A stretch of 64,000 nucleotides of DNA. Source: an uncultured virus (IMG/VR IMGVR_UViG_3300035502_001146). Lineage: Duplodnaviria; Heunggongvirae; Uroviricota; Caudoviricetes. A model generated the notes under the pieces. That model saw only the letters and a list, made by a program, of their open reading frames with translations, was not told where the DNA came from and did not search any database. Position 1 is the stretch's first letter. Each line of letters begins with the position of its first letter. The position numbers were made by a program, and so were the translations under genes. Below are positions 787 to 52,752 of this stretch, in pieces. The DNA is taken from the IMG/VR virus record IMGVR_UViG_3300035502_001146. One strand, given 5' to 3'.

Positions 787-875
787 AAAAAATTACCAAA
801 TTCTTTTATCTTATAAGTTTTTTTGCAATACAGCTAATGTTTGATTGGCATTCTCACCACAAAAATTTATTTATT

Positions 876-1228
876 GTTTTAACACACACATATATAAGTT
901 ACAACCAAAAAACGGTGGTAACTATATGTCTCAAATTTCAATACATATATATGTATAAATTGCAACAGTGTTGATGTATTACTTTGTGATGTTACTTTTG
1001 AATCTCAATACATATATGTGTATAAGTTGCAACAAAGAAGAAAACGATATAAAAGATATAAAGCAAATCTCAATACATATATGTGTATAAGTTGCAACGT
1101 CAAGAAGCCGATTGTGTTGTGTACTGTTGTAATCTCAATACATATATGTGTATAAGTTGCAACACATATTTTGACCCTAAAGTTGTAGCCGACAGAATCT
1201 CAATACATATATGTGTATAAGTTGCAAC
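876..1228 (-). CRISPR. CRISPR array 1; 33-nt repeat GTTGCAACTTATACACATATATGTATTGAGATT (minus strand), 5 spacers
   Basis: Identical repeats at 1001-1033, 1066-1098, 1131-1163 and 1196-1228; variant at 934-966; degenerate copy at ~876-905; spacers of 32, 32, 32, 34 and 28 nt; degeneracy increases away from the leader. Confidence 0.95.
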
Positions 1229-1420
1229 AACAAAATTGCACAAAAAATATTCAATTTTTTAACTATTATTTATTTGTGTTAAATAGATGATATATAAACA
1301 ACAAATTACAAAAGTTATTTATTATTAAACGAATATTAACTCTTGTACAATTTTATAGGTGCGAACCCCAATTTCAAACGCTTAAAATCAGCATTAGATT
1401 TTAAGGATTCGCACTTATAT
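1229..1420 (-). promoter_or_regulatory. CRISPR leader 1 with GTGCGAA...TTCGCAC inverted repeat (type I-C-like)
   Basis: GTGCGAA at 1359-1365 and TTCGCAC at 1408-1414; homologous to 3984-4170. Confidence 0.7.
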
Positions 1421-1424
1421 TTTT

Positions 1425-1626
1425 TAATCACAACATTACTATATATATGCCTTGTTTGTACACAAAATTCTTCTCAGCTTACTAATTATAAACACAATGT
1501 TATAAAAGCAAGACAGCACTAAAACTTTTTCCAAACAAGCTTCATTACCAAGGACAGTAATCTATCCATTAACGGTAATATTTAAAGAAGGAGTTGAGAT
1601 TCTCCTACTGTTCTTTTTCAAGAACA
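1425..1626 (-). ncRNA. Putative tracrRNA 1 (~200 nt)
   Basis: Own TTGACA-17-TATAAT promoter; loop AATCTCAA (1594-1601) complementary to the repeat 3' end TTGAGATT; imperfect anti-repeat at 1427-1450; stems covary with copy 2. Confidence 0.8.
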
Positions 1627-1631
1627 AATAT

Positions 1632-1660
1632 ATTATACCATACTTTTTAAACTTTGTCAA
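1632..1660 (-). promoter_or_regulatory. Sigma70/SigA promoter of tracrRNA 1
   Basis: TTGACA at 1655-1660, 17-bp spacer, TGnTATAAT with -10 at 1632-1637. Confidence 0.85.
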
Positions 1661-1671
1661 TAGTTTTTAAA

Positions 1672-3348
1672 TTATAATTCTGAAAAATCTTTTAACCCTA
1701 AACTTGATACCTTATGAGTAGAATTATCATTTTTAAGCTCTCTGATTACTTCATCGTGCATTTTATCGAAATTAGCAAAACCGTCAATACATTCCTGCCT
1801 ATTAAAAGTTTCCAAATCAGGATTGATGTGACTAATACAATAAGCTGCATATAAGTCACGTTGATACTTTTTACCATCAATAGTTTTAAACCTTTTGCTT
1901 AAGGGCATTTTAACGTAAGTATTATCTACGTGGTTATATTGACTTGCTTTAGCTTTTTTAGTGTTTATTTTAATAAGTTCTTTATTGAAATAACCAAGTT
2001 TCCTATTTAAGATATCCAATGCCTTTGAAGGAGCTTTATTAGCCAAAGACTTACCAAATCTCTTTTTACGGTTAAACTTACCCTTAGAATTTTTAGTAGT
2101 CTTTTTAGCCTTTTTCTGTAATGCTTTGAAATCCATATCTTCTACATAAAACTCATCGCCCATTCCAATAATTTCATTAGCAAGTGTTTCGTGTGAAAGT
2201 GTTCTTAAATCGGCTTGCTTTCTGAAAAGCTCTTTTCTTTCAGCTGCTAATTTTTTATAGTTGTTTGATTGTTTCCACTTACGTTTTTCTCCTTCTTTTA
2301 GTGTAACAAGAGTTCCATCTTCATTAAAGTTATCAGGGTTAGTAGCTCTTCTACTTCTATCCATTTTTCTATTAATTATTCTGAGCTGATTTTGAATATC
2401 TTGTGCTCCTTTTGCAAGCTCTTCCAATTTTAATTCTCTATCACTAGATACTGCAATAGTTTGAGTACCAATATCAATACCAACCTTACCGTTGCCCATA
2501 AGGCGATTATAATTAGTAGGTGGAATACCATTCAATGTTGCCTGTACAAAAAATCTATCTTTCTTTTTTATACTCTTGCGAACAATTCTACACCTAATTA
2601 TTTTGTTATTGTTTAAAGCTTCTATAATGTAGTTATTATTTTTAGGGAGCTTAATAGGATAATCTTTTTTCATATAGGTTACGCAATTCTTTTCAAGGTC
2701 TAACTTAACAGCTTGATTTTTAGAACTGCCATTTATAGAATCAACAGTATTATAACGCTTGAAATGGAATCTTTTGCCATTGCCCCATAAGTTTTTATCG
2801 TAAGCTCTCCAAATATCGTCTCTAATACTTTCAGCTGTTTTAGAATGTATATTAAAATGAGAATATACTTTTTGAACATCTTTGTCAAAATCATATTTTG
2901 AAATTCTATATTCTTTTAACAATTCATTTTTTATATTATTAAACTCAGGTTTAATCAATTTAAATTCATCATTTAATTTCTTTTTTTCTGCTGCAAGTAT
3001 TTTTGTCTGAACTGCAATATCTTTCTTCTTATTATTTAAATCAATAATTTCTTCGTTAGACAAATTATTATTTTTTAAAAGTTCATTTATCTCAGCTATC
3101 TCATTATTCAACTCATTTATTTGATTTTTATAATCATTAATAGGCTTCCAATACTTTTCAGTAGTTTTTTCTATATACTTATACTTCTTAGTCTTTTGCA
3201 TTTCTTTATATCTTTTTAATGTTATACTAAGAACCGTATTATATACCTTTCTACAATCTTCCAATTTCTTATTTAAGAAATCAATTTGGAATTTTTCAAG
3301 GTTCAAAGGTATTTGTACTACAAAGCATTTCTTTTCTGATTTAGCCAT
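1672..3348 (-). CDS. tnpB: CRISPR-associated TnpB/Cas12f-like RNA-guided RuvC nuclease, 558 aa
   Basis: RuvC-I GIDIG, RuvC-II YVEDMDF, RuvC-III QRDLYAA; bridge-helix segment RKMDRSRRATNP; N-terminal coiled-coil insertion; own promoter at 3394-3422. Confidence 0.9.
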   Translation of the reverse strand: MAKSEKKCFVVQIPLNLEKFQIDFLNKKLEDCRKVYNTVLSITLKRYKEMQKTKKYKYIEKTTEKYWKPINDYKNQINELNNEIAEINELLKNNNLSNEEIIDLNNKKKDIAVQTKILAAEKKKLNDEFKLIKPEFNNIKNELLKEYRISKYDFDKDVQKVYSHFNIHSKTAESIRDDIWRAYDKNLWGNGKRFHFKRYNTVDSINGSSKNQAVKLDLEKNCVTYMKKDYPIKLPKNNNYIIEALNNNKIIRCRIVRKSIKKKDRFFVQATLNGIPPTNYNRLMGNGKVGIDIGTQTIAVSSDRELKLEELAKGAQDIQNQLRIINRKMDRSRRATNPDNFNEDGTLVTLKEGEKRKWKQSNNYKKLAAERKELFRKQADLRTLSHETLANEIIGMGDEFYVEDMDFKALQKKAKKTTKNSKGKFNRKKRFGKSLANKAPSKALDILNRKLGYFNKELIKINTKKAKASQYNHVDNTYVKMPLSKRFKTIDGKKYQRDLYAAYCISHINPDLETFNRQECIDGFANFDKMHDEVIRELKNDNSTHKVSSLGLKDFSEL

Positions 3349-3537
3349 TTTTATTTCCTCCTTTTAATATTTTAGTATTTTGTCTATGCTTGTATTATAT
3401 CACAAATTCTATTATTTGTCAAGTATTTTTTAACAATAAAAAAGAACTTAGTGGTAAAACTAAGCTCTTTTTGAATTGTAATTTATTTGCAAGGAGGATT
3501 ATTACAAAATGGCAAAATGTATAATCAATTAAATAAA

Positions 3538-3756
3538 TTACAATGTATTTATGAAATCTTTAATTGTTTTTAAGTCATCAGGATTATGAGTAACAACCTC
3601 TACTGGTAAAGAAAAGTCCAAAGAGAAAAGACCCATAATAGACTTACCGTCTACTATATATCTATCGGATTTTACTTCAACATCACCGTTGCATTTATTA
3701 GTTGTATTTACAAAATCCTTAACTGTTTGAATATTATTAAAAGTTATTGTCATCAT
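3538..3756 (-). CDS. HPr-like protein (Ser46 motif retained, no His15 motif)
   Basis: VDGKSIMGLFSL motif; 72 aa. Confidence 0.8.
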   Translation of the reverse strand: MMTITFNNIQTVKDFVNTTNKCNGDVEVKSDRYIVDGKSIMGLFSLDFSLPVEVVTHNPDDLKTIKDFINTL

Positions 3757-3879: not shown

Positions 3880-3983
3880 ATTACAATACATATACATATA
3901 CATATATAAATTGCAACGTGAATGATTATGAGGAAAATAATAACAGCACATATTCCAATACATATACATATATAAATTGCAAC
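3880..3983 (-). CRISPR. CRISPR mini-array 2; repeat GTTGCAATTTATATATGTATATGTATTGGAAT, 1 spacer
   Basis: Repeat at 3952-3983; degenerate repeat with a 6-nt duplication at 3880-3917; spacer 3918-3951; flank homologous to the array 1 leader. Confidence 0.8.
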
Positions 3984-4172
3984 TGCAACATTGCACAAGA
4001 ATATTCAATTTTTGAAATTTATTTTAATCACAACAAATAAATGATATGTAAATAACTTTCCTATAAAAGCTATTTGTAATCAAAAAATATCACCTTTTGT
4101 GCAAAATTGCAGGTGCGAATCTAATTTTAAAATATATAAGAACAATATTCTTTTTTTAAGATTCGCACTTGC
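3984..4172 (-). promoter_or_regulatory. CRISPR leader 2
   Basis: GTGCGAATCT at 4113-4122 and AGATTCGCAC at 4159-4168; homologous to leader 1. Confidence 0.7.
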
Positions 4173-4177
4173 ATTTT

Positions 4178-4380
4178 TAATTGCAATTTTATTATATATG
4201 CCTTGTTTGTACGCAAAGTCCTTCTCAGTTTACTAATTATAAACATAATGTTATAAAAAACAAATAGTACTAAGACTTTTTCCAAAACAAGCTTTATTGT
4301 CAAAGAAAGCAATCTTTCCATTAACGACAATATTTAAGGGAGGAGTTGAAATTCCCCTACCGTTCTCTCTTTCAAGAACA
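4178..4380 (-). ncRNA. Putative tracrRNA 2
   Basis: Diverged copy of 1425-1626; promoter at 4386-4414; loop AATTTCAA at 4346-4353; anti-repeat at 4180-4201. Confidence 0.8.
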
Positions 4381-4429
4381 GTTATATTATATCACACTTT
4401 CAATCTTTTGTCAATAGTTTTTAAAAAAA

Positions 4430-4913: not shown

Positions 4914-5648
4914 TTATTGAAAATAATCACCTTGGGCAAATACTTTATAATTACTTATTATATCTTGCTCTACTCTATTCTTTATATAAAAGCCTTTTAT
5001 TTCAAAAGGTCGTTTGCAATTCTTAGGAATAGTAATAGTTGTATCACTAATAGCAATAGCTTCACCATCTTCATCATAAAAAACAACCCTTATACAAACA
5101 GACTGCTCTTTATTTTTATTGTTACTTATTTTACCTGTAACTATAGGAGCTTTATTTCTATATTTTAAATCAGTATTACTTACTTCAAATTCATTTACTT
5201 GCTGCGTAGCTGCAACAATATTAACATGAGGAACTAATATCAAACTTTCATTATTTAATGCATCTTCTGTTAATTTTAAATTTCCTATATCATTATAGAA
5301 GTAACCTTTTTCATTTGGTCGTATTACAGATGGACAAGAAGTAATAATACCACTTGTTTGAAAATACTCTCCATTATTATTTTTTAAATCAAATGTACAA
5401 TCTTTTAGATATATATTATTATTTCCTGTGTTAGTAATTTCAACTATACCATAATATTCCTTGTTATCTAATTCTACATAATCAAGCCTTGTATTTGTAA
5501 TTGAATAACTTATTTCATCAGTAACACTAATATCCGTATCTTCAATTACAACTTCATTATTACTTTCAGTTTTATTACAACTTATCAATAAAGAATAAAT
5601 GATGATAATAAGGAAAATGATTTTAATATATAAGAATTTATTTTTCAT
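4914..5648 (-). CDS. Putative lipoprotein with two Ig-like domains; paralog of 6461-7423
   Basis: Hydrophobic N-terminus ending LISC; EYYGIVEITNTG...YLKDCTFDL shared with the paralog. Confidence 0.7.
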   Translation of the reverse strand: MKNKFLYIKIIFLIIIIYSLLISCNKTESNNEVVIEDTDISVTDEISYSITNTRLDYVELDNKEYYGIVEITNTGNNNIYLKDCTFDLKNNNGEYFQTSGIITSCPSVIRPNEKGYFYNDIGNLKLTEDALNNESLILVPHVNIVAATQQVNEFEVSNTDLKYRNKAPIVTGKISNNKNKEQSVCIRVVFYDEDGEAIAISDTTITIPKNCKRPFEIKGFYIKNRVEQDIISNYKVFAQGDYFQ

Positions 5649-6460: not shown

Positions 6461-7423
6461 TTACCACTGATAATAACTTACCTGTGCGATAGTTTTATAA
6501 TCTCCAACAGTATTTGCAGTTACATTATCATTCATAAACATACCCGAATTTTCAAAACTCTTTTTGCCATTAGCAGGGATGTCGTAAACATTTGTTCCTG
6601 TTATTGCCAACACCTCACCATTTTTATCATAAAAAATTGTTTGTACATAACAATTTTGTTCTTCGTTCGTAGTATTTATAATTCTACCTGTGATAACAGG
6701 ATAATTGCTATCATACTTTAATTCAGTATCGCTTACTTCCAAATCGGTTGCTTCACCTGTTGCTTCTACGACAGTAACTTGTGGTACTAAATTTATACCA
6801 TTGCTAACAGATACACCATCATCAAGAGTAGTAGAACCTATATTGTTGTAGAAATAACCTTTTTCACCAGGCTTAATTACATCAGGAACTGAACTAATAA
6901 AGTCCTCTGTCTGCAAAAGATGACCTGTATTATCTTCCAAATCAAATGTACAATCTTTAAGGTAAAGATTTGTACTACCTGTATTTGTTATTTCAACAAT
7001 GCCATAATATTCTGTTTTACCAATTGAATTAGTGTAATATTCAAACTTAGTATTACTAATTTCATAATTGGTTTCTCCTGTTGAAACATCAGTAGAACTT
7101 TTATCTTCTAAACTATCTGAGCTACTTGCAGGAGTACTTGTACCTGTTGTAGTAGAAGTATCACTTTTACTACTCATAATAGTTATTCCACCGCCACAGC
7201 AACACAAAAGGAAAATAACACCAACGATAATAGCAATTATTAGTACTGTTGGATTCTTATTCTTAGCTCCACATATTGGACAACTCTTTGCTGTCTTTGC
7301 CATTGGACTACCACAAGTAGGGCATTTTTTCATACCATTGGGTATCATATTATTTACGCCATTATTCATACCATTGTTTGTATTATTCATACCGTTATTT
7401 ACATTATTCATATTATCATTCAT
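6461..7423 (-). CDS. Zinc-ribbon membrane-anchored protein with Ig-like ectodomains
   Basis: CPTCG...CPICG, transmembrane helix, Ser/Thr linker. Confidence 0.75.
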   Translation of the reverse strand: MNDNMNNVNNGMNNTNNGMNNGVNNMIPNGMKKCPTCGSPMAKTAKSCPICGAKNKNPTVLIIAIIVGVIFLLCCCGGGITIMSSKSDTSTTTGTSTPASSSDSLEDKSSTDVSTGETNYEISNTKFEYYTNSIGKTEYYGIVEITNTGSTNLYLKDCTFDLEDNTGHLLQTEDFISSVPDVIKPGEKGYFYNNIGSTTLDDGVSVSNGINLVPQVTVVEATGEATDLEVSDTELKYDSNYPVITGRIINTTNEEQNCYVQTIFYDKNGEVLAITGTNVYDIPANGKKSFENSGMFMNDNVTANTVGDYKTIAQVSYYQW

Positions 7424-7625: not shown

Positions 7626-9818
7626 TTACAATAAATCTCCAACAAATTCATCAATATCATAAGGAGTAATAACTTTAATTAAAGGTTGATTGTTTTCTTC
7701 CCTCTTTTTGTTAAGCTCCGTAATATCTATTTGTTTGTTAGTAAAAATAACATCAGCGTTAGAAATATCATCAGTTTCAATTCCTCTTGCCTGAATATTA
7801 TATTTAACTAAATCATACATACTCATTCTGTTAGTATGGATAAAGTTATATAAAATAACCTGCAATGAATTTAAATGAGTTTCTACCATCTGAGTTTTTG
7901 GTGTAGCCTTTTGTTTCATATCACAATGAGCAATAGGGGCATCTACATAGATAATTTCCTTAGTTTCAATATCCATAATAAATGGTACTATATTCATTTC
8001 GTTGGTCGTTATAGCCATTTTATTAAAGACATTCTTAGGATTTATCTTACCTGTAAGTTCATTGGTATATCCAAATGTACAATTTAATTGACTAAATGGT
8101 ATTTTTGAAAACACATAAATCTGAGGAACAATATATTTAACATTATGTTTCCTAAGAGTTTCTACATATATGTCAATAAATTCAGCTGCACCCTCACCAT
8201 CGAAATCTCCACCGTCAGTAATATCTCCTGAATGTTTCATTCCCTCACATTTTAAATGAGTAAAATCAACATAATCTACACAAGTTAAATTTTCAGTAAA
8301 CAAACCACAAGATAAGTCTACATCAATTCTTGTACCATCTTCTGTATTAGTCCAATGGATAAAAGCTCTTAATTTATCGTAATCAAAACTTTCCCTACTG
8401 CCTCTTGTAATAATTCTACTTGTAGAATTACTTGTTCTTAAAGTATTGGGAATTGCAAAGTTTTTAAATTCATCAGATAAATAAACGTAGCCCATATAAT
8501 CTTTTTCCATATAAAGATTTACAAGAGCATTATTGCTTACCTGAACGATATAATCAATAAATTTACTCTTTAAATCATTACAAGTATTTAAGACTGCATA
8601 GGATTTACTTGAATTAGCTTTTACATTAAATACTCTTAATTCTTCTTTATTATAATTCTTAAAGAATGTAATAATAGAAATAAGAACAGGAGAGCTTAAC
8701 TTACTAACAATATTTTTATAAACATTCATAATATAATGAAGGTCTTTTTCTGTAAGGTCAGGCTTATTGATAAACTCATTTAATCTTCTTGCAAATTCTC
8801 CTGGTCTTGTTTTAAGTAAATCAACAGCAGGAATAATTTGATTATTCTTAATAAGATTATCAACCTTACCCATAAATGTATCAATATGCTCGCCATTTCT
8901 AAGCATAGAAATAGCTTTAAGGGCATAATCATACTGTTTAAAAGTACCTACATTTAATTTATAAGCTGCGGTTATCCAAAGGTTTTTCTTCTTATACATA
9001 TCTTCATAAGCATTGCTATTATTCTTAACAACAGTATTTAATAAAGATACGATAAATTTCTTTTCTCTATTTTTAAGGTTCTTAAAACGACACTGAGTAA
9101 CTAAAGAAATATCACCGTCAGATAACCCAACAATAAGTCTTAATACATCAGTCGTATTATTAAACCACTTAGTAGTATATAAAGATAAATCGTTTTGCAT
9201 AAGAAGCTTAGTAACAGCAATAAGATTTTCTTTAAAAGGAATTTCCTTAATAGAAAGAATAATATTACTATTAACAGAAACGGAGTTCTTTATATCTTCT
9301 AAGTCTTTATTAGATAAAGAAGTTTTAGAGCTAAGAAGATTTTTGATGATTTTTGCATAATCATCAGAAGTAGCCTTTTCTAATTTAATTAACTCTACAT
9401 TATCTTCTGATTCAATATCAGTTGATATATCATTCAATGTAGAATAATTAACATCAGCCCCCTTTAAAGATTTAAGAATATCATAAACTTCCATAAGAGT
9501 GTCTCTAATATGGTCTAATTTATAAAAAGTTAAATCATCAAAAGAAGAACCCAATGTATAACCTAATCTTTTGAAATATTCATTACAATCATTAATAACA
9601 TCTTTTTTACCAAGATAGTCAGGTACAAAAGCAATGTAAAAATCTTCAAGACTATTAAATTTTTCGTGATTGAGGTCTTTCAACTTACTATCTTCATTTA
9701 AGAAGTCAAGCAAATCTTCTTTATTTTTTGCTGCAACAAATGAATCATAAGCAAATTCTTTTTCAGTAACAATAAAAGAATTTTTTCTACGTAACAAAAC
9801 TTCATTCATTATATTCAT
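7626..9818 (-). CDS. Large helical protein with a C-terminal TerD-like domain
   Basis: RPGEFARRL, W...IDVDLS, HSGDIT...AAEFIDI motifs; start placed at ATG 9818 after GGAAGG. Confidence 0.7.
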   Translation of the reverse strand: MNIMNEVLLRRKNSFIVTEKEFAYDSFVAAKNKEDLLDFLNEDSKLKDLNHEKFNSLEDFYIAFVPDYLGKKDVINDCNEYFKRLGYTLGSSFDDLTFYKLDHIRDTLMEVYDILKSLKGADVNYSTLNDISTDIESEDNVELIKLEKATSDDYAKIIKNLLSSKTSLSNKDLEDIKNSVSVNSNIILSIKEIPFKENLIAVTKLLMQNDLSLYTTKWFNNTTDVLRLIVGLSDGDISLVTQCRFKNLKNREKKFIVSLLNTVVKNNSNAYEDMYKKKNLWITAAYKLNVGTFKQYDYALKAISMLRNGEHIDTFMGKVDNLIKNNQIIPAVDLLKTRPGEFARRLNEFINKPDLTEKDLHYIMNVYKNIVSKLSSPVLISIITFFKNYNKEELRVFNVKANSSKSYAVLNTCNDLKSKFIDYIVQVSNNALVNLYMEKDYMGYVYLSDEFKNFAIPNTLRTSNSTSRIITRGSRESFDYDKLRAFIHWTNTEDGTRIDVDLSCGLFTENLTCVDYVDFTHLKCEGMKHSGDITDGGDFDGEGAAEFIDIYVETLRKHNVKYIVPQIYVFSKIPFSQLNCTFGYTNELTGKINPKNVFNKMAITTNEMNIVPFIMDIETKEIIYVDAPIAHCDMKQKATPKTQMVETHLNSLQVILYNFIHTNRMSMYDLVKYNIQARGIETDDISNADVIFTNKQIDITELNKKREENNQPLIKVITPYDIDEFVGDLL

Positions 9819-9919
9819 AGTTACCTTCCACCTTTCTCTTTCATAAAAATCTCTTTTAATTTCTCTCTTAAAAACATTGTAATTATTATACCACATTTTT
9901 TATTATTTGTCAATAGTTT

Positions 9920-25811: not shown

Positions 25812-26372
25812 TTATTGAGTATTCTTTTTTCTTCTTTCATTCTTAAAACAATACTTTTCATAAAAATCATGCATATTACGTTTTAACCAAGTATGCGTAG
25901 CTGATGGAGATAGATAGAATAATTTAGCTAATTCATTTCCCCACCCTTTTTTAGAGAAATCTATATTACAATTTTCTACTATTTCTTTTCTTTCATCAAT
26001 AATAGCCTGCTGATTATAACAATGATTTTCAAAGAACTCAGGCATATATTTTTTTACATAATTAAAAGTATTACCTTGATTAACACCAAAGAGGTGGCTT
26101 AATTCCTTACTCCAACCTGGTTTAGAAAAGTCTATATTACAATTCTCCACTATTGACTTTCTTATTTCAAGCATATCATCCACTTTATAAGCATTTTTAT
26201 ATTCATTAGGCATATTTCTTTCTACCCAGTGGTAAGCTGCTGTATAAGATATATTTAATATATCTGCTACTTTATAACACCATCCCTTTTGAGCGAAATC
26301 TATATCATTATTAATAATTAACTGTTTTCTATCTGCTGTATCTGTTATGTCTATTGTCTTTGTCATATACAA
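25812..26372 (-). CDS. Repeat protein, 3 copies of the IDFSKxGW HTH-like repeat
   Basis: Repeats visible in the translation; own promoter and terminator. Confidence 0.8.
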   Translation of the reverse strand: MYMTKTIDITDTADRKQLIINNDIDFAQKGWCYKVADILNISYTAAYHWVERNMPNEYKNAYKVDDMLEIRKSIVENCNIDFSKPGWSKELSHLFGVNQGNTFNYVKKYMPEFFENHCYNQQAIIDERKEIVENCNIDFSKKGWGNELAKLFYLSPSATHTWLKRNMHDFYEKYCFKNERRKKNTQ

Positions 26373-26692
26373 AAACTCCTTTCCTTAAAAAATATTTTCC
26401 TCTCATTTATGTCTTTATTATAACACACTTATTATTCTTTGTCAAGACTTTTTTATAATTTTTAGATTATAGGTTTTATTTCTTACTAAACATTATGTTA
26501 TATATTGAAAAAATTATACATAGAAAATTTAATTTTTTTAAAGACTTTTAATAATTAAATTATTTATTAGAGAAAAATAAAAATATAGTATGGTAAGAAA
26601 TTCATCAAGAAATAATTCCTTAAGAAAAACTTAACCATACTATATTTAGAAAAATTATTAAAAAGATTATATAAATCTATAAGGAGCTATAA

Positions 26693-28549
26693 TTAATCTT
26701 CACTCTTAACTTTATTCTTCTTACAGTTCTTTTCATAGAAACTGCTCATATTATTCTTAACCCATATATAAGCTGATATAGGTTCTATATTGAATATTCT
26801 ACCAAGTTCAGTTGACCAACCTCTCTTAGAGAAATCAACAGTACCATTATTGATAATTTTAATCATTTGGTTCATTCTATCTGATGAAATTTTCTTTACT
26901 GATTTATTAAGAGCGTTATTAGAATCTTCATCTAAATAACAAATCTTGAATAAATTAGGAGCTTTATATTTTACAAAATCAAAAGCTCTATCAGGAGAGT
27001 TATTTAATTCTATAGATAATCTTATGCACCAATCCTTTTTAGTGAAATCAATACCAAGACTATTTAAGAATATCTCGGTAGCATTTTTCTTAACTTCAAT
27101 ATTTTCATTATTAGAAATATTATTAGAATTGTTTGCAGGATTATTTTTAGAATTATTCACAGGAGTGTTCACTACTTCTGTTTTATCATCAATATTATTA
27201 ACCGTATTTGATTTTTCATTATTAGGAATTTCCTTATTGGAAACCTCTTTATTAGAAGCTTCATTATTATCGATAAGAGAATCTTTAAAAGCAACAATAG
27301 ATTTATTATTTAAATCAAACATATGATTTTTAATCCACTGCTTTGCATTTTTTTCTTTAATACCAATAAGATTAACTAAATCTTTTTCCCAACCGAATTT
27401 ATTTAAATCAATATCACTTTCATTAACTATTCTTATATAATCAGCAATAGTAGCTGATTGATTGTCGTGATAACAATTTTCAAAAAATTCAGGCATATAA
27501 TTAGCTACGAAACTAAATGTTGCTTTAGGAGTAGAATTAATTTCTTTAGCCAATTCTATATACCAATTTCTTTTACTAAAGTCTATATTGGAATTTTTAA
27601 TATTATTAATCTTATCCACGGTACTCTGTGAAATAGGCTTTGCAAAAGTTCCCATTAAGTCAAGTAAATTACTTTCCATCCATATCTTAGTACTTTCAGG
27701 TGAAATACCAAAGAGCTTAGATAATTCAACACACCAAGTATTCTTAGAGAAATCAATATTACTTTCATTAATAATCTTTAATCTTGCTGCCTTTAATTCT
27801 TTATATCTATCTGCTACTTCCACTTCCTTATTTATTTCAACGTCTTTACTGTTTTCATACGCCTTAGTATAAAATTCAGGAACATTTGTTTTTATCCAAG
27901 AGAACAAGTCTTTTGATGGAACATTTATCTTTTCAATGAGTTTGATTCTCCAACCCTTCTGCTGTAAGAAATCATTAGGTAGATTTTTAATTATTTCAAT
28001 TCTTTGCTCATCAGTAATATTCTCATCAAAATTCTTATAGTTTATACTAACAGGGTCTTTAGATTTTCTTCTATAATATACTCTTTTTTCTTTAGGCTTC
28101 TTTACGACAACCTTTTCCTTTTTAATGCGAGGATAAGAATTTTCATAAAGTTCAGGCATATTAGTTTTAATCCAAAGAAGTACAGCTGCTGGTGTAATAT
28201 TTAACTTTTGTGCAAGTTCTGAACACCAACCTCTTTCTTCAAAGTTTATACCACTATTTAATATAGTATGTTTTCTGTATTCATTCTTTACTTTCTGAAT
28301 GGGAACATTCTTTTTATTATTTATAGTAGTATTATCTTCTGTTACTGTTTCTGAATTATCCATTAGCTTACTACAAGCCTTATTGTAGAACTCAGGAGTA
28401 TATTGCATAATAAATCTTGGTAATATATTTGGTGATATACACAACATTTTACTAAGTTTATCAAACCAATCTTCCTGATTAATGAAATCATCATTTAGAG
28501 AATTGACAATTTTTATCTTACGTTTAGTCTCACTATCGAGATTCTTCAT
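26693..28549 (-). CDS. Repeat protein, ~8 copies of the IDFSKxGW repeat
   Basis: Repeats visible in the translation. Confidence 0.85.
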   Translation of the reverse strand: MKNLDSETKRKIKIVNSLNDDFINQEDWFDKLSKMLCISPNILPRFIMQYTPEFYNKACSKLMDNSETVTEDNTTINNKKNVPIQKVKNEYRKHTILNSGINFEERGWCSELAQKLNITPAAVLLWIKTNMPELYENSYPRIKKEKVVVKKPKEKRVYYRRKSKDPVSINYKNFDENITDEQRIEIIKNLPNDFLQQKGWRIKLIEKINVPSKDLFSWIKTNVPEFYTKAYENSKDVEINKEVEVADRYKELKAARLKIINESNIDFSKNTWCVELSKLFGISPESTKIWMESNLLDLMGTFAKPISQSTVDKINNIKNSNIDFSKRNWYIELAKEINSTPKATFSFVANYMPEFFENCYHDNQSATIADYIRIVNESDIDLNKFGWEKDLVNLIGIKEKNAKQWIKNHMFDLNNKSIVAFKDSLIDNNEASNKEVSNKEIPNNEKSNTVNNIDDKTEVVNTPVNNSKNNPANNSNNISNNENIEVKKNATEIFLNSLGIDFTKKDWCIRLSIELNNSPDRAFDFVKYKAPNLFKICYLDEDSNNALNKSVKKISSDRMNQMIKIINNGTVDFSKRGWSTELGRIFNIEPISAYIWVKNNMSSFYEKNCKKNKVKSED

Positions 28550-28769
28550 TTATTTTCCCCCTTACTATACTTTTAACTTTTCTTTACAAACAAATTTCCA
28601 CTTCTGATTTACTACTATTATAGCATACTTTTTATTGTTTGTCAATACTTTTTTAAACAAAAAAAGAGAGGTAATATCTACCTCTCTTGTATAATTTTAT
28701 TGATTTTTTATCAAACACGTTATTGATATTTTTTAAATAATGATTTTTTATAGAGTTGCTTGTAAAAAA

Positions 28770-29567
28770 CTATTTGTAGCAATGTGTTTCATAAAACTCA
28801 GGTTTATTATCTCTTACCCAAGCTTTAGCTTCGTTTGCTGTACAACTAATTTTTTCACTAAGTTCTTTACAGAAATTATAATGCCAATTTTTTTGATGAA
28901 AATCAGTTATAGATTCTGCAAATATTTGATTAAAAATATCCTCTGATACTTCTTTAGAAGTGGATTTTTTTAATCTTTTATTTCTTGTATCTACCTGTTC
29001 TTCTTCTCCAAAGAACCAAGGCATATACTGTTGAACGAATACATAAACTTGTTCTTCGTTCATATTAACAGCTTCCGCTGCTTTAAACTTCCAATCGTCA
29101 TCAGCATAACCAGTTACTTCAAGTATTTTAGAAATAATCGTTGCTCTTTCTTCATTAGTATATGTACTTCTAATTGTGTTACTATTGGTATTGCTATTTA
29201 TTGCTAATTGTGTTACATTGTTTGTTGCTTTATTTGTTGCTACTTTCTTTGTTACATTTTTAGCTTTAGTATTACTAATAGTCTTACTAACAACCTTTGG
29301 TATTGCTTTGTTTGTTTCTTGATTTTGTTGATTATGTTGCTTAATTGTAGTTGTTGCTTGTAAAACATCTTCTTCGTATTTATAACAGTGTTCAAAAATG
29401 AGTGGGTAATTCCTTTTAACATATTTATATGCTATTCTTTGTGATGTACCATATAACTTAGCTAATTCAATATCCCAACCTTCTTTTTTTAAATTTAAGC
29501 CATTTTCAATGGCTTCATTTGTTATAATAAGTCTCTTACTTCTAAGTTGTCTTGGTGAAAGCGACAT
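28770..29567 (-). CDS. Repeat protein, ~3 divergent repeats
   Basis: GW.IELAK and W.R.NKPEFYE..C motifs. Confidence 0.75.
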   Translation of the reverse strand: MSLSPRQLRSKRLIITNEAIENGLNLKKEGWDIELAKLYGTSQRIAYKYVKRNYPLIFEHCYKYEEDVLQATTTIKQHNQQNQETNKAIPKVVSKTISNTKAKNVTKKVATNKATNNVTQLAINSNTNSNTIRSTYTNEERATIISKILEVTGYADDDWKFKAAEAVNMNEEQVYVFVQQYMPWFFGEEEQVDTRNKRLKKSTSKEVSEDIFNQIFAESITDFHQKNWHYNFCKELSEKISCTANEAKAWVRDNKPEFYETHCYK

Positions 29568-29837
29568 TTGCGTTCTTTTAACCTCCTTTATAAATGTGTA
29601 GTATGCTTAGAAAAAAACACTATTTTATACTAATTCTGTATAAACCGTTTTTGTTCTTAAGTATAACATAATTATATAACACTTTCCATTATTTGTCAAG
29701 GTGATTTGTAAATAATTTCTAATAAAAAAAAGAGGGTAGGTTTAATTCTATCCTCTTTTTATATAACTATAATTTACCTATTATGGTAAAAATTACTATT
29801 ATTAAAAAACATTAATTATTAACTTTTTTGTTGTTAA

Positions 29838-32162
29838 TCACACAGACTTCTTATAATTAGTGCCCTTACGACATTTAGATTCATAGAAGTCAGGCATATT
29901 ACTTCTCAACCAAGCAGAAGCACTAATAGGAGATAAATTTAAAAGTTTGCCTAAATGAATACTCCAACCATAATCACCGAAATTAATATCACAGGTTCTT
30001 ATAAGCTCTTTTCTTTTATTGGTAATTTCATTGGAAGACCTCTGCTTAAAACAGTTTTCTTCATAAAAATCAGGCATATTTTCTTTAACCCATATAAGAG
30101 CTGCTGATGCAGAAATATTTAAAATTTTACCTAATTCAGTTCCCCAACCTTTCTTAGAATAATCTATATTAGCATTTAGAATTATTTCTTTTCTTTTTTC
30201 AACAGGAGATAAAGTTACTTCTTGTGCGTTATATACATCTTCTAAAGTAGATTGAACAACACCGTCATCATTATTCTTCTGCCCAAGCTTCCAACAGTTG
30301 TTTTTAAAGAAATCAGGTAAATTTCTTTTTACCCAATTATAAGCAGTCGTTGGATTATTTAGATTGAATAATTTAGCCAAGTCGTTACTCCAACCCTTTT
30401 TAGAGAAATCTATATTGGACTTTTCAATAATCTTTTTTCTTTTATTAAGAAGTCTTTTATTTTTATTTGGATATTGATAATTATAAATGTTACAATATTC
30501 ATTATAAAACTTAGGCATATTATTAGCTAACCAATTTGTTACTGCTGCTGGATTAGAATCCATAAGCTCTGCTAATTTAAACTTCCAACCATACTTAGAA
30601 AAGTCTATATCACAATTCATAATAATATTTCTTCTTTTTTCAAATTCAGACTTATTACGATTAGTAAAAGGCTGTTCGTTGAAAGTGATAATAGCATTTC
30701 TATTTCTTTCCTGTATAACTTCATTTATCTTCTTTGATTTTTTAGAAGAGTTATTAGAAATATTTTCATCATGAATACTATTATTAGAAATATTATTAGA
30801 AATACTGTTAGAATTTTCATCATTAGGAATACCAAGTGAATCCGTATCTTCTATAATAGAACTTTCATTGTAAGTAGGAGTTTCATATATAGTATCTTTA
30901 TACATATTTGAATCTTTATACGTACTACTTACTAACACCCTGTCATTTACGTTATATTGTTCTACAACAGGCTTTTTGTCATAGAAGTATTCAACATTAT
31001 AAAAGAATGGTAATTTGGTTCTAATGAACTCTCTTGCGTTTTCTACGGTAGTGTTTAAAATATATGCTGTTTGTTTATCCCATCCATAATCATAAAAATT
31101 AATTTTAGCTTCAAAAAGAATTTGAACATAATTATGAACAGTTATCATACCATTATTACCAAGTTTAGGGTCAAAATAACATTTCTTATAAAAATCAGGC
31201 ATATAATCTCTTACGAAATAGAATGTGTTTTTAGGAATATCATTAATAAGCCTTGATAATTCAATATGCCAATTTCTTTTAGTAATATCTACATTACTTT
31301 TTAGAATTAAATCAATTTTTCTATTAGCAATAGTATGTTCATTAAAGCAATTATTGTAATAGAACTCAGGCATATTTTCCTTTACCCATTTTCTTGTATC
31401 TTCAGGTGACATATTTAACGATTCAAACAATTCATATTCCCAATGCTCTTTAGAATAATCTATATCAGAATATCTAACAATTTCCTCTTTTGTAGGAGGT
31501 TTCTTAGAAACAAAAGCTCTTGAATAGAAGTTTGGTATATTCTTTTTCAACCAATCATTTATTTCTGATAAAGGGATTTGAATTATTTCACCAACAATAT
31601 TATTAGCATTTTTATTTTTAGCAAAATCATCACTAAGATTATTTACAATACATTTCCTTGCTTCATTGATGTTTTTTTCATTACCCTCTGCAAAGATAGT
31701 TTCATAACCAAAAAACTCAGGCATATTCTTTTTCATCCAAAAACAAGAATCAGCTTGTGTTTTTATTTCTCTATCCATATTAGAAATAATATCAAAAACT
31801 TTCTTATTCCAATCTTTATTAAAGAAAGAAATATGCTTGTCATAAATAGCACTTCTTATTTCTGATATTTCTCTACTTTCATTATAACAACATTCCTTAT
31901 AAAAATCAGGCATATTATTTTTTACCCAAGTATAAGTAGCAGTAGGATTAGTAAAACCTGTTTTAGTATTTATAAATATCTGAGTAAGTTGTTTTTCCCA
32001 ACCTGCTTTAGAGAAGTCTATTTTACTATTTAATACAATTTTAAAAATTCCACCCTGCCCAATATACTTTTTATAATACTTAGACAAATCTGTTGTTGCT
32101 ATATTATCTTTTTTATTATACGTCAAGTATATTCCCCCTTCCGACATATAGCTTATTATCAC
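29838..32162 (-). CDS. Repeat protein, ~10 copies of the IDFSKxGW repeat (start uncertain)
   Basis: Repeats visible in the translation. Confidence 0.85.
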   Translation of the reverse strand: MIISYMSEGGIYLTYNKKDNIATTDLSKYYKKYIGQGGIFKIVLNSKIDFSKAGWEKQLTQIFINTKTGFTNPTATYTWVKNNMPDFYKECCYNESREISEIRSAIYDKHISFFNKDWNKKVFDIISNMDREIKTQADSCFWMKKNMPEFFGYETIFAEGNEKNINEARKCIVNNLSDDFAKNKNANNIVGEIIQIPLSEINDWLKKNIPNFYSRAFVSKKPPTKEEIVRYSDIDYSKEHWEYELFESLNMSPEDTRKWVKENMPEFYYNNCFNEHTIANRKIDLILKSNVDITKRNWHIELSRLINDIPKNTFYFVRDYMPDFYKKCYFDPKLGNNGMITVHNYVQILFEAKINFYDYGWDKQTAYILNTTVENAREFIRTKLPFFYNVEYFYDKKPVVEQYNVNDRVLVSSTYKDSNMYKDTIYETPTYNESSIIEDTDSLGIPNDENSNSISNNISNNSIHDENISNNSSKKSKKINEVIQERNRNAIITFNEQPFTNRNKSEFEKRRNIIMNCDIDFSKYGWKFKLAELMDSNPAAVTNWLANNMPKFYNEYCNIYNYQYPNKNKRLLNKRKKIIEKSNIDFSKKGWSNDLAKLFNLNNPTTAYNWVKRNLPDFFKNNCWKLGQKNNDDGVVQSTLEDVYNAQEVTLSPVEKRKEIILNANIDYSKKGWGTELGKILNISASAALIWVKENMPDFYEENCFKQRSSNEITNKRKELIRTCDINFGDYGWSIHLGKLLNLSPISASAWLRSNMPDFYESKCRKGTNYKKSV

Positions 32163-32304
32163 AATTACATTTTTACATTGTCTATATTATACTACAATAT
32201 TTATTTTTTGTCAATAGGTAAATTGATGAAATTGATGAAAAAATAAAAAAAGAGGATAAAAAATCCTCTTTTTAAATAAAAAATTATATTTATTAGTATT
32301 TAAT

Positions 32305-33375
32305 TTAATCTTCTTTAGAATAATCAACTACTAAATCTTCTTGAATCCATTCTATGTAGATGGAAAGGTATTCATCAATAAATTTTTCTTTTTTAAGTCT
32401 TTCTTTTATACTTGTATCTTTTTTATCGTCAGTAAATTCATTTATGATATTTTTATTTTTTGTTGAGTAACAATATTTTTTTACAAAATTAGGAAAATTG
32501 TTTTTTACAACATTATAGCAATTATTATATGCAGGAATGCCAAATATAGTTGTAAGTTTACGACTCCAACCTCTTTTTGAAAAATCAATACCGCATACAC
32601 ATAATAAATCAACAACACTTTTTGTAACTCCATCTGTTAAATCTAACATTTCTAAATCTCCACATTCATAGATATGTTCAGTATTTAATTCTATAAGAGC
32701 TATTTTTTCTTTTAAATTTGTTTCTTCTTCTTTTTTCTTACGACAATATTTTTCAGGAAAATAAGTAGTAATATAATTCCAAATATTAGTTGGGGATAAA
32801 TCAATGTTTAATTTATCTTTTATTTCTTTTTTTAATTTATTCTCCCAACCGCCAAGAGAGTAATCAATGTTGGAATTTTTAATAACATTACATATCATTT
32901 TTGTTTTGGAATTTTGTTTTTTATTCTTAAAGTTTTTTATTTTTCTTTTTTTAATTACTTCTTCATTTGATTTGTTGTTTCCTAAATTATTATTTTCCAC
33001 CTTTTCATTAAAAGAAGTTTCATCAATTTTTATTTCTTTTTCAGTTACATTAGTTATCTCTTTTAATATTGAACGATAATAAGTAAAATCTTTATTACAA
33101 AAATCTTCAACAAAAGTAGACATTTTAACATTCATAAAATTAAAAATTTCTTCTTCATTAAAAGGTTTTAAAGTAAACGGATTGATTATTTCTCTTTCGT
33201 ATAATAAATTTGTTAAATTTGACAACCAAAAATCTTTTGTTATATCAATGCTCTTTAATCTAATTAATTGAACAATTCTGCTTTCAAAACTTTTTTCATT
33301 ATTATATTTATTAAATAACTCTATCAACTTCTCATCTTTAAAAAGTTCTTTTAGTTGATTGGTTTCTATAGACAT
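32305..33375 (-). CDS. Repeat protein, ~3 repeats
   Basis: IDYSLGGW and IDFSKRGW; start placed at ATG after AAGGAGG. Confidence 0.8.
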   Translation of the reverse strand: MSIETNQLKELFKDEKLIELFNKYNNEKSFESRIVQLIRLKSIDITKDFWLSNLTNLLYEREIINPFTLKPFNEEEIFNFMNVKMSTFVEDFCNKDFTYYRSILKEITNVTEKEIKIDETSFNEKVENNNLGNNKSNEEVIKKRKIKNFKNKKQNSKTKMICNVIKNSNIDYSLGGWENKLKKEIKDKLNIDLSPTNIWNYITTYFPEKYCRKKKEEETNLKEKIALIELNTEHIYECGDLEMLDLTDGVTKSVVDLLCVCGIDFSKRGWSRKLTTIFGIPAYNNCYNVVKNNFPNFVKKYCYSTKNKNIINEFTDDKKDTSIKERLKKEKFIDEYLSIYIEWIQEDLVVDYSKED

Positions 33376-33851
33376 TTTTCTAATCCTCCTTTGTTTTTGT
33401 TTAATTATACTATATTTTTTATTATTTGTCAATAGTTTAATAAAAATATCTATTTCTTATGAGTATTTCTTTACAAAGAAAAAAGAGTAGATGAAACATC
33501 TACTCTTTCCTCAAACAACACACACTTTTTAAAGAGGTTTTATTATGAAATAGTCAATAGACTATCAAAACTGGCTTAATCATTTTTAAGGAATATGTAA
33601 GAGAGTTATTGTATGTGCACCACTTGTTAAGAAACTCTCTTACATATATACCTTTCTGCCTATCAAGCAAGAAAGAACAAAAAAATGAAAGAAAATAAGA
33701 CTATGAAAACTTTACAGTCAACTTTTCCGTTCCTTGACTGTAAATAAATTATATCACACTTTTTGATGTTTGTCAAGTACTTTTTTAAAATTTTTCAAAA
33801 ATATTTTTATTTAATGTTTTTCTTTAATAACTTTTACTTAATATCTTTTAC

Positions 33852-35516
33852 TTAATATTTTCTAAATGTTGAGTAACATTCAGGCATATATTCTTTAATA
33901 AAGCTTCTCGCTTCGTTTTCCGAAACATTAAACAATTTTGCAACTTTTGTAACCCAAGGCTTTGTAAAATTTATACCTGATTCTTTAATAACCTTAATTC
34001 TTCTTGGAACTTCATAACTTTTATTTTGTGGAAGTATATCCTTAAAACAACTATTATAATAGAAATCAGGCATAGCAACTCTTACCCAATTGCTAACACT
34101 GTTTTGTGAAAGATTAAGCAATAATGCGATTTTTTTAGTCCAACCTTTTTTATTAAAATCTATCTTAGAATTTAATATAAGATTTTTTCTTTGTTCTGCT
34201 TTTGCTGATAAAGGTTTAACTTCTATTGATGTAGTTTTTTCAACAATAGGTTCTTCTACCACTTCATCAAAATCAAAACTCTTTCTAAGAACATTATCAA
34301 CAAATTTTTGTGCTTGCTCTATAGAACAATTAAAAGCCTGTGATAATTTTTCTTCAACATTATTATCTTTTACAAAATCAACACCTGTATTAATAGCCAT
34401 AACGACATAATTGGGAACTGTTAAAACACCATCTTCACCATACTTCTCATTTGAATAACACTTATTAAACAAATCTTGCATATTATCTTTAACAAAATGA
34501 TATGCTTCTGATGGTGAGTTATCCATTATTCTTGATACTTCAATAAACCAATTTCTTTTACTAAAATCAATTTTTGAATTTAATATCTTATCTTTAAGCC
34601 TTTCAAGAATAAGTTCTTCATCATAACAGTTCTCGTAATAGTAGTCGTGCATATTATCTTTCATATATTGTTTTGCTTGTTCAGGAGTAAAATTACCAAT
34701 AATTCTTGACAAATCTATTTCCCAACCTGACTTAGAAAAATCAACACCTGAATCAAGAATAATTTCTTCAATAGAAAGTTCTTTGGGTTCATCTTCTTCT
34801 TCAAAAGTATCATTAAGAATATCATTTTCTTTTTGAACTTCCTCTGTAATATTTTCATCAGTTATTTTTTCTATTGATGAAATATTTAAAGTCTTTGCCA
34901 TTTTGAGCTGACTAAGAAAAGCTCTTGAATAAAAGTCTTTAATATTTTCTCTAAGCCAATCGCCAACATATTCAACGGGATAATCTATAATTTTACTAAT
35001 ACAATATTCAATACTTTCTTTCTTAACATTTTTAGTAAAATCATCACTAAGGTTTTCTACAAATATAACTCTTGCATCATTAATATCTTCTTCTGTAATA
35101 TACTCTGTATGTAATCCAAAAAACTCAGGCATATTTTCAGCAATATATAAACAAGCAGATATTTCGTCTGTTATATCTTCGTTCATCGCATTTAATATAG
35201 AAAAGATTTGTTTGTTCCAATTCTTATTATTAAGTGGATTGATTTCTGACTCCTTAATGATGTTTTTTATTTCATCAATTCTGCTTGATTCATTATAACA
35301 ACATTCTTTATAAAACTCAGGCATTTTTGTTGTTATATAATTATGTATTTGGTCTAACTTCTCAAAATTAGGAAGAACCTTTTTTAATAATTTTTCTTCC
35401 CAACCTGCATAATTATAATTAACATTTGCGTTTAAAATTTTCATTACTGTTGTAGATATTTTCCCATCTGTATTATACAGTTTGATATATCTATCTTTTT
35501 GTGCTTTTGATAGCAT
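33852..35516 (-). CDS. Repeat protein, ~8 repeats; closest to 29838-32162
   Basis: Shared MP.FYKECCYNES and NLSDDF segments. Confidence 0.85.
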   Translation of the reverse strand: MLSKAQKDRYIKLYNTDGKISTTVMKILNANVNYNYAGWEEKLLKKVLPNFEKLDQIHNYITTKMPEFYKECCYNESSRIDEIKNIIKESEINPLNNKNWNKQIFSILNAMNEDITDEISACLYIAENMPEFFGLHTEYITEEDINDARVIFVENLSDDFTKNVKKESIEYCISKIIDYPVEYVGDWLRENIKDFYSRAFLSQLKMAKTLNISSIEKITDENITEEVQKENDILNDTFEEEDEPKELSIEEIILDSGVDFSKSGWEIDLSRIIGNFTPEQAKQYMKDNMHDYYYENCYDEELILERLKDKILNSKIDFSKRNWFIEVSRIMDNSPSEAYHFVKDNMQDLFNKCYSNEKYGEDGVLTVPNYVVMAINTGVDFVKDNNVEEKLSQAFNCSIEQAQKFVDNVLRKSFDFDEVVEEPIVEKTTSIEVKPLSAKAEQRKNLILNSKIDFNKKGWTKKIALLLNLSQNSVSNWVRVAMPDFYYNSCFKDILPQNKSYEVPRRIKVIKESGINFTKPWVTKVAKLFNVSENEARSFIKEYMPECYSTFRKY

Positions 35517-45809: not shown

Positions 45810-46355
45810 TAAATAAAAGGGAACGGCTGAAATAGCCGTTCTTTTTTGGGCAAAAAGTTTGTTAAATATTTTTACAATATTGTTAAATTTTTAACAATTT
45901 AGTTCCCATATTTTTATTAAATTATTTAATAAGCATTTTTACTTTTCACTATTAAATAATTTATTAAGCAAATGATTTTTTAAAAAATATAAACACCCTT
46001 TAAAATCTCTTATACGGCTTATATACAGCCGTTTATTTTTATATTAAGAATTACATATATAATAATTAAACTCTTATTATACAGCCGAATACAGCATTAC
46101 AGCAGTGTTTATACACGCAGCTCACGCAGCAGCGATTATATATTTTTTCCATCTATTTTTTTATATACGCTTTTCTAAGTATAATTTTCTAAGTATAATT
46201 TTCTAATCATAAATTTTCCTAATCATAAACTTAAATAATTTAAAAAGTATTTATTTTTTTAAAAAGTACTTGACAATAAACAAAAAAAGTAGTATAATGA
46301 TAACAATCAACAAACTTTAATAACCTATAAAAAATAAATAAGGAGTGAATTAAAA

Positions 46356-52612: not shown

Positions 52613-52752
52613 TAAATAAGGTGGGAGAAATCCCACCTATTTTTATGTTTAAAAAGTTTGTTAAATACTTGCACAATATTGTTAAATTTTTAACAATCTC
52701 CGCCCCTTGGCTTATTAAATGGTTTAATAAGGTGAGCAGATACTGTTTTTAG

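Follow-up and report, generated by a model that had tools for sequence, protein, structure and literature searches.

Cassette 2, a promoter-tracrRNA-leader-array module in a large virus-like element of the gut, is real and structurally maintained, and with moderate confidence we read it as an additional guide unit of the young type V nuclease encoded next to it. The window, i.e. the whole 64-kb stretch of DNA that was analysed, has a nuclease gene flanked by two such modules, cassette 2 upstream and cassette 1 downstream on the minus strand. That one nuclease is served by two guide cassettes had been proposed in the first-pass annotation, and it is the best-supported reading of the locus, since both scaffolds descend from the RNA of the nuclease's own TnpB family, cassette 2 has kept its structure and the window holds a single nuclease; the loading of the enzyme by both cassettes is predicted.

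Organization of the locus and its carrier

On the minus strand the order is 136-aa ORF, cassette 2, HPr-like ORF, terminator-like hairpin, nuclease gene, cassette 1 and trpF. Cassette 2 (4414-3880) is a diverged copy of cassette 1, with 69-82% identity by part. The features are:

4386-4414, minus strand: cassette 2 promoter, sigma-70/sigma-A type, TTGACA-17-TATAAT, extended TG, 12/12 consensus
4180-4379, minus strand: tracrRNA 2 (ends inferred), IS200/IS605 omega-RNA-derived; 35.9 bits, rough E 1.4e-4 with the omega-RNA-only model
4346-4352, minus strand: 7-nt hairpin loop of tracrRNA 2, complementary to the repeat 3' end; putative pseudoknot-type short anti-repeat
4180-4201, minus strand: long anti-repeat 2, pairs with the 5' 24 nt of the repeat
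3984-4179, minus strand: leader 2, with inverted-repeat hairpin 4168-4159/4122-4113 and closing stem 4110-4097/3998-3985 abutting the first repeat
3952-3983, minus strand: repeat 2a, 32 nt
3918-3951, minus strand: single spacer of cassette 2, 34 nt
3880-3917, minus strand: trailing degenerate repeat 2, 38 nt; 6 nt of it are duplicated internally, and it has a mismatch with the tracrRNA loop
3538-3756, minus strand: ORF for an HPr-like protein of 72 aa, separating cassette 2 from the nuclease gene; matches below curated cut-offs
3472-3439, minus strand: terminator-like hairpin after the HPr-like ORF
3394-3422, minus strand: nuclease gene promoter, 12/12 consensus
1672-3348, minus strand: 558-aa TnpB-derived type V nuclease, RuvC-type D292, E403, D498 present
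1632-1660, minus strand: cassette 1 promoter, 12/12 consensus
1427-1625, minus strand: tracrRNA 1 (ends inferred); 51.0 bits, rough E 2.9e-7; exact pieces in RNA-library contigs
1229-1426, minus strand: leader 1, two stems as in leader 2
874-1228, minus strand: array 1; 32-nt repeats, four of them identical, plus a variant at 966-935 and a degenerate one at 905-874

The whole non-coding module had been described as duplicated and diverged about 2.75 kb away and with one spacer in the second copy, and both statements were borne out: all parts are present at an offset of 2754 nt, and cassette 2 has one 34-nt spacer (3951-3918). Identity between the copies is 38/47 in the promoter, 168/206 in the tracrRNA, 134/194 in the leader, 26/32 in the repeat and 11/34 in the spacer, with 24/55 in the sequence upstream of the cassettes; in blastn the two tracrRNAs match at E 4e-52 and the two leaders at 2.5e-16. 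The homology begins just past the upstream stop codon in both and stops at the first repeat. The cassette 2 repeat, earlier called different, is instead a variant (81% identical), and the trailing repeat equals repeat 2a in its first 26 nt and has the duplication in its 3' part. The earlier picture of a nuclease-less cassette next to an unrelated ORF stands as far as the 136-aa ORF is concerned, which has no Pfam, PHROG or NCBIfam match and Atlas matches all <0.9, but the nuclease start (3348) lies only 532 nt beyond the cassette 2 array. No third copy of the cassette was found by blastn in the 64-kb window. Spacers of array 1 are 33, 33, 33, 35 and 29 nt long. The cassette 2 promoter alone carries little weight, since perfect promoters are common in the element (26 in the 64-kb window, this one included). 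Each array is followed by one host-like metabolic gene, the HPr-like gene and trpF respectively, without a detected terminator; homologues of the HPr-like gene in host-family genomes have ~70% DNA identity.

The window is AT-rich (GC 20-36%) and dense in ORFs of unidentified function. PHROG matches include PhoH, phosphoesterase, sliding-clamp and endolysin-like proteins (E <1e-10 in 8 of the 25 proteins tested), Rfam matches are three tRNAs only, and none of the proteins scanned was recognised as a virion component. Window proteins are found on a 118,565-nt contig, i.e. one longer than the 64-kb window, and their close relatives on a 118,813-nt contig, while two protein clusters reach a 502,690-nt contig; the element is a putative 'jumbo phage'. 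DNA of its relatives was absent from the viral and metagenome contigs searched, and the only match to the tracrRNA motif (L001) was rejected as an unrelated terminase gene. The 91% DNA identity of trpF (173-788) to L004, a trp operon gene of a Lachnospiraceae-labelled genome, indicates a host group of Lachnospiraceae type. This host-derived gene is excised almost exactly at its ORF ends and stands directly after array 1; an RNA contig that differs from trpF at a single position in 88 nt runs into other sequence beyond 788, and trpF is absent from the cluster list of the 118,813-nt relative.

Several other features of the window deserve mention. At 25812-35516 there are large paralogous ORFs with a repeated domain carrying the 'DFSK.GW' motif, each behind its own perfect promoter and with weak PHROG matches only, for one of the three tested. 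Two paralogous predicted membrane-anchored proteins (4914-5648 and 6461-7423) are 72% identical over 183 nt, and the 756-aa product of 7626-9896 has relatives in the MXAN_6230/SCO0854 family and in phrog_33734. Similar intergenic inverted repeats at 45823-45900 and 52619-52699, with weak RNA-model matches, are probably a repeated regulatory element.

Descent of the nuclease and of its guide RNAs

Profile searches with the 558-aa nuclease gave weak matches, below cut-off, to Pfam OrfB_IS605 and NCBIfam guided_TnpB. Closest to it are P0001 (86%) and, as aligned, P0002 (77%), and the next nearest form a large family of ~486-aa proteins with 40-48% identity. For the IS200/IS605 TnpBs of this family identity over the C-terminal three quarters is 41-48%, and comparison with IS605 TnpBs as the transposon relatives gave 46-48%. 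D292, E403 and D498, which we take to be a RuvC-type catalytic motif, are invariant in 8/8 aligned proteins; relative to IS TnpBs the nuclease has an N-terminal helical insertion. Relatives occur in 6 of 399 scored genomes of a Clostridia sample, and a further TnpB search picked out one of 164 genomes, which was already known. The ~486-aa relatives, from this sample and five annotated records, are IS200/IS605 elements or their remnants: G212 has three near-identical 2,162-nt element copies at different sites, and an annotated IS200-type transposase precedes TnpB in 3 of the 5 annotated records. In a quick 56-protein tree (three phage-type nucleases, 7 of the 120 listed relatives, 40 of the first 42 further representatives and 6 of the 9 IS loci) the phage-type nucleases are nested among IS605 TnpBs on a long branch with support 100, and their sisters are three proteins of unidentified context.

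The predicted structure (pLDDT 76.7, pTM 0.43) matches Cas12m, TnpB, Cas12f, Cas12p and LaTranC about equally, with 9-16% identity, and phmmer found no solved relative, LaTranC included, so that by sequence similarity the nuclease does not belong to Cas12f, Cas12p, Cas12m or Cas12n. Nor does the locus look like an IS200/IS605 transposon with tnpA and/or ends and a single omega-RNA: no tnpA-like ORF lies next to the nuclease gene, the right-end hairpin is absent behind it, and the RNA is split.

A covariance model made from the omega-RNAs of nine IS200/IS605 loci, none of them from the window, places tracrRNA 1 (51.0 bits) and tracrRNA 2 (35.9) first and second of nine matches in the window, the next one reaching 19.6. 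An earlier four-sequence model had scored them at 23.8 and 16.4, below a background match of 25.7 bits; in the match of omega-RNA model R1 to tracrRNA 1 the right-end hairpin is missing. The non-coding RNA located behind IS tnpB genes aligns with the two tracrRNAs, one stem after another, as far as the IS right-end hairpin, which in the cassettes is replaced by the anti-repeat:repeat duplex. In IS omega-RNAs the 5' loop pairs with the 3' end, compensatory changes being present, and the homologous loop in the cassettes is paired to the 3'-terminal 7 nt of the repeat. The arrangement of tracrRNA and repeat is the omega-RNA splitting described for TranC (PMC13639567; bioRxiv 10.64898/2026.03.27.714800). 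Direct repeats within ~1.5 kb of IS TnpB genes were absent in all six loci tested. Since the omega-RNA model finds both tracrRNAs and the nuclease nests among IS605 TnpBs, the locus would be a young, TranC-like TnpB-to-CRISPR conversion.

It should be noted that the nuclease is a mosaic, with residues 1-282 94% like P0001 and 50% like P0002, and residues 283-558 99% like P0002 and 78% like P0001. This suggests that sister strains may swap the N-terminal half, which would read the target motif.

Another possibility, which we consider unlikely, is that the nuclease served by cassette 2 is a diverged paralog at another place in the genome, or that a nuclease gene once in front of the cassette was lost and left it an orphan. 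Both cassettes start directly after a stop codon, the outcome expected from duplication of a gene together with its cassette; at least three versions of the nuclease exist, and its halves form a mosaic of P0001- and P0002-like sequence; further tracrRNA and leader variants are present in RNA contigs; and the window is about half of the contig, most of the genome probably lying outside it. However, the search for a second effector and further cassettes suggested by the first-pass annotation, carried out over the 64-kb window, returned one nuclease gene and no third cassette, and neither a second nuclease gene nor a nuclease remnant was found elsewhere in the window. In addition, the longest contig is 118,813 nt both for P0002 and for the close relatives of the neighbouring proteins, and 3,222 nt both for a P0001-type protein and for an HPr-like one; such shared contig sizes, which are equal lengths and not a DNA match, suggest alleles at the same locus in sister strains.

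Maintenance of cassette 2

When the structure of tracrRNA 1 is scored on tracrRNA 2, the 27 substitutions break 3 of the 58 pairs, with 7.9 +/- 1.8 expected (P 0.006), and 6 double compensations are seen against 1.06 expected (0/20,000 permutations). The reverse test, with the structure of tracrRNA 2 scored on tracrRNA 1, gives 3 broken pairs versus 7.2 expected (P 0.016) and 5 double compensations versus 1.08 (P 0.001). The permutation tests say that both copies diverged under selection for structure, the covariation resting on two full copies in which kept pairs may predate a recent loss of function.

Pairing between anti-repeat 2 and repeat 2 is worth -15.7 kcal/mol, a value as low occurring in 1/2000 shuffles, and with repeat 1 it is weaker than with its own repeat (-9.3). 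Anti-repeat 1 is not discriminating: its pairing with repeat 2 (-16.9) is no weaker than that with its own repeat (-14.1), so the pairs of the two cassettes are not orthogonal. All 7 positions of loop 2 pair with the own repeat (6 Watson-Crick and one G-U). The old repeat at 966-935, identical to each modern repeat at 29/32 positions, pairs perfectly with loop 2 and with one mismatch with loop 1, from which it follows that tracrRNA 2 would carry the ancestral loop and that loop 1 and repeat 1 would have changed together. Folding models, which include neither pseudoknots nor protein nor processing, predict that the anti-repeat pairs with the first repeat (expected pairs 18.4 against 0.3 in one comparison and 10.8 against 3.1 in another); in the whole array 1 transcript the first repeat takes 7.0 expected pairs and the others <=0.8.

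Leaders are folded more stably than their shuffles (z -6.6 for leader 1 and -4.9 for leader 2). In each, an inverted-repeat hairpin is accompanied by a closing stem, whose end is one base short of the first repeat, and between the copies 12-13 of 63 pairs are broken versus ~19.6 expected (P 0.015 and 0.005). In a third leader variant, from RNA contigs, 4 of the 22 listed substitutions fall at paired positions against 10.8 expected (P 0.002), and 3 of these 4 keep the pair as read by hand. The stems show G-U/G-C and G-U/A-U exchanges, which argue for RNA-level selection on the leader as well. Leader inverted repeats are also described as DNA sites for integrases (bioRxiv 2023.05.26.542337), so the hairpin may persist as a DNA site. 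The leader inverted-repeat motif is not enriched in host-family genomes (3/71, with 7/71 for a control pattern), and the window repeat has no copy in these 71 genomes, only its two terminal motifs being common to the 33-nt repeats of the arrays in G017, a host-family genome. G017 carries five copies of the inverted-repeat motif, four of them directly upstream of arrays at 48 nt rather than ~130 nt, and cas1 was not found in this genome. The leader/array type may be 'type I-C-like'. At L132 (G017:C30), L129 and L135 several short leader-plus-array units stand in tandem, and their leader inverted repeat overlaps the promoter.

RNA data were contigs from four animal-gut metatranscriptome runs of four studies and give presence only; strand, ends and level are not readable from them and DNA carry-over is possible. 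Exact pieces of cassette 1 occur in all four runs, and cassette 2 is represented, among the matches listed, by one exact 151-nt piece (3945-4095) in one of the four (X1), which takes in 7 nt of spacer 2. A variant of cassette 1 is covered by a 380-nt contig from the tracrRNA through the leader and the first repeat. One leader variant has 12 of its 22 listed changes in common with cassette 2. Changes in tracrRNA variants fall at paired positions in 7/11 and 4/6 cases, i.e. without depletion, and by hand the pair is kept in 6/7 and 3/4 of them. The nuclease gene, the exact tracrRNA 2 and spacers 2-5 of array 1 have no contig cover among the matches listed, to which we give no weight. Contigs of X2 and X4 (window 1196-1247) have a related repeat with another spacer and another leader and, as far as presence goes, would be a further cassette in this or a sister element. 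Pieces at 3614-3663, 3987-4021 and 2875-2915 come from other sequences.

These data bear on the view that cassette 2 is a once-functional duplicate, now decaying or silent. It could account for the single spacer, the damaged trailing repeat, the lower omega-RNA score of tracrRNA 2 and the thin RNA-library support, but it fits poorly with the intact promoter, the few broken pairs and many compensations, the matched anti-repeat and repeat and the exact copy of 3945-4095 in an independent run. With so few broken pairs, six double compensations and pairing to its own repeat kept, cassette 2, to judge by its sequence, is not simply decayed, and we give present decay or silence a low probability.

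Spacers, mode of action and related systems

A target for spacer 2 (3918-3951), which the first-pass annotation had proposed to look for, did not emerge from viral, phage, plasmid and metagenome collections or from host-family and order genomes. Neither exact 24-mers in genome contigs nor the 3' 19-mer gave matches; two viral 18-mer matches were rejected at 13 mismatches over 34 nt, and so was the one metagenome 22-mer match (L162), with a mismatched seed in a sequence that is not phage-like. The best blast E values were 0.1 for phages and 0.9 for plasmids. Weak matches in 20/71 host-family genomes (best 25/34) are mostly to repeats or low complexity, and 2/401 order genomes match at 3 mismatches in 24 nt. 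For the array 1 spacers the searches likewise gave no target: spacers 1 and 2 have no viral 18-mer match, spacer 1 matches 0/301 genomes, and the 29/33 match of the low-complexity spacer 3 to a housekeeping-like host-family gene was judged chance. Self-targets in the window have 9-12 mismatches at best. The absence of targets is weak evidence, since the collections searched lack even relatives of this element.

The first-pass annotation also allowed for a regulatory cassette, whose spacer would bind a partly matching promoter (of the nuclease, host cas or other host genes) and repress it without cutting, in the manner of tracr-L or of regulatory mini-arrays. Cassette 2 lies immediately upstream of the nuclease gene, and its two repeats, the distal one degraded, have the shape of a regulatory mini-array (bioRxiv 2023.03.03.530964). 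However, the spacer is full-length, its seed (first 12 nt) matches at <=8/12 in four local promoter regions and never at >=11/12 in the window, two host-family cas loci have no 12-nt seed match, and the full leader is kept, which regulatory mini-arrays are suggested to lack (bioRxiv 2023.03.03.530964); a regulatory guide is therefore quite improbable. A role of tracrRNA 2 mainly in trans, as an extra scaffold for distal array 1 repeats or a nuclease-titrating decoy, can be given very little credence: loop 2 pairs with repeat 1 at 7/7 positions, and without mismatch with the old repeat, but the pairing of anti-repeat 2 with repeat 1 is weak (-9.3), and folding predicts capture of this anti-repeat in cis by repeat 2.

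If cassette 2 is a second guide unit for the adjacent nuclease, one promoter would give a tracrRNA-leader-repeat-spacer precursor in which the tracrRNA retains the omega-RNA scaffold. Anti-repeat and hairpin loop would pair with the first repeat, aided by the self-folding leader, and the leader would be trimmed off the precursor. The nuclease, expressed from its own promoter 0.5 kb downstream, would then bind the RNA and cut DNA matching the 34-nt spacer, most likely that of a rival mobile element. As each transcript carries one scaffold, duplication of the whole module would add a further guide that has a scaffold to itself. Among the window ORFs scanned, none was recognised as an adaptation gene, so a host integrase would insert the spacers. 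More tentatively, a host-type leader may have replaced the loop of the last omega-RNA hairpin and act as an RNA zipper; each transcript would then be one long natural single guide loading mainly the newest, leader-proximal spacer, the element would gain simultaneous guides by cassette duplication, and sister strains would swap the nuclease N-terminal half and keep the cassettes.

Among known systems the closest in kind are TranC, the TnpB-to-Cas12 intermediates (Jin et al. 2025 Cell) that include the phage-borne CauTranC9 (PMC13639567; bioRxiv 10.64898/2026.03.27.714800). Common to both are a TnpB-like nuclease beside a short array, an omega-RNA split into tracrRNA and crRNA, 32-nt repeats, the lack of own adaptation genes and, for some, a phage carrier. 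As in TranC, the effector of the window is close to TnpB with intact RuvC residues, the tracrRNA is omega-RNA-homologous with a 3' part from the repeat, and the adjacent array comes without transposase or transposon ends. In contrast, the second complete tracrRNA-leader-array cassette of the window has no counterpart in the portion of the TranC literature covered, and the solved LaTranC has no sequence match to the nuclease (11-12% identity in structural match). IS200/IS605 TnpBs of Clostridia and phages (phiCD211, Geobacillus virus E3) have the same catalytic residues and a homologous RNA scaffold, but are mobile, often with tnpA, and use a single omega-RNA ending at the right end; no nearby repeats were found at the six loci mentioned above.

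Multiplication of guides by duplicating the whole scaffold is described for omega-RNA arrays of sigma-associated inactive TnpB/dCas12f, which differ in the inactive nuclease, the fused tracrRNA and half repeat and the sigma factor partner (PMC10691335), whereas in the window the catalytic residues are present and each copy keeps its leader and true repeats. Phage-encoded Cas12p (500-700 aa) has a ~185-nt tracrRNA with a pseudoknot to the repeat 3' end (bioRxiv 2025.01.20.633832); it has 9-11% identity to the nuclease in structural alignment and an independent origin. Cas12r, also phage-encoded and 500-700 aa, has no tracrRNA and is proposed to rely on host adaptation (bioRxiv 10.64898/2026.04.20.719267). 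It is, like the window system, small and phage-borne, but of independent origin. The window system may work in the manner of a dual-RNA TranC system that depends on the host for adaptation, a dependence proposed for Cas12r.

Viral or regulatory mini-arrays likewise have one spacer, an intact first and a degraded second repeat and a viral carrier, but borrow a host effector through host-identical repeats (bioRxiv 2023.03.03.530964; PMC11656645), whereas cassette 2 has its own tracrRNA and leader and fits the neighbouring nuclease. No host CRISPR repeat equal to its repeat, as use of a host effector would imply, occurs in the 71 host-family genomes, and its spacer does not match a related virus, as in inter-virus mini-arrays, in viral, phage and metagenome sets that lack the element's relatives. 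A possible second tracrRNA has been noted in some Cas9 loci (bioRxiv 2020.09.02.279885), and a jumbo phage has been described with orphan arrays (PMC12607003). No account of a single type V nuclease with a duplicated tracrRNA-leader-array cassette on its two sides was found in the literature covered, most subscription journals lying outside it.

Should cassette 2 be merely decaying, the value of the locus is that of another small phage type V locus. Otherwise it would represent a very recent TnpB-to-CRISPR conversion in a virus-like element, traceable because nearly half of the residues are common to live transposons and the RNA homology is still detectable, and it would offer natural variation to work with, in the form of two scaffold variants and three nuclease alleles. 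It lets one test how a single omega-RNA becomes tracrRNA and crRNA, whether leaders serve as RNA chaperones for loading in cis, and why early systems may duplicate whole guide units rather than lengthen arrays. The nuclease itself is a candidate compact enzyme with ready-made guide variants. If the leader does work as a zipper, the locus would be a snapshot of CRISPR before the array was useful as an array.
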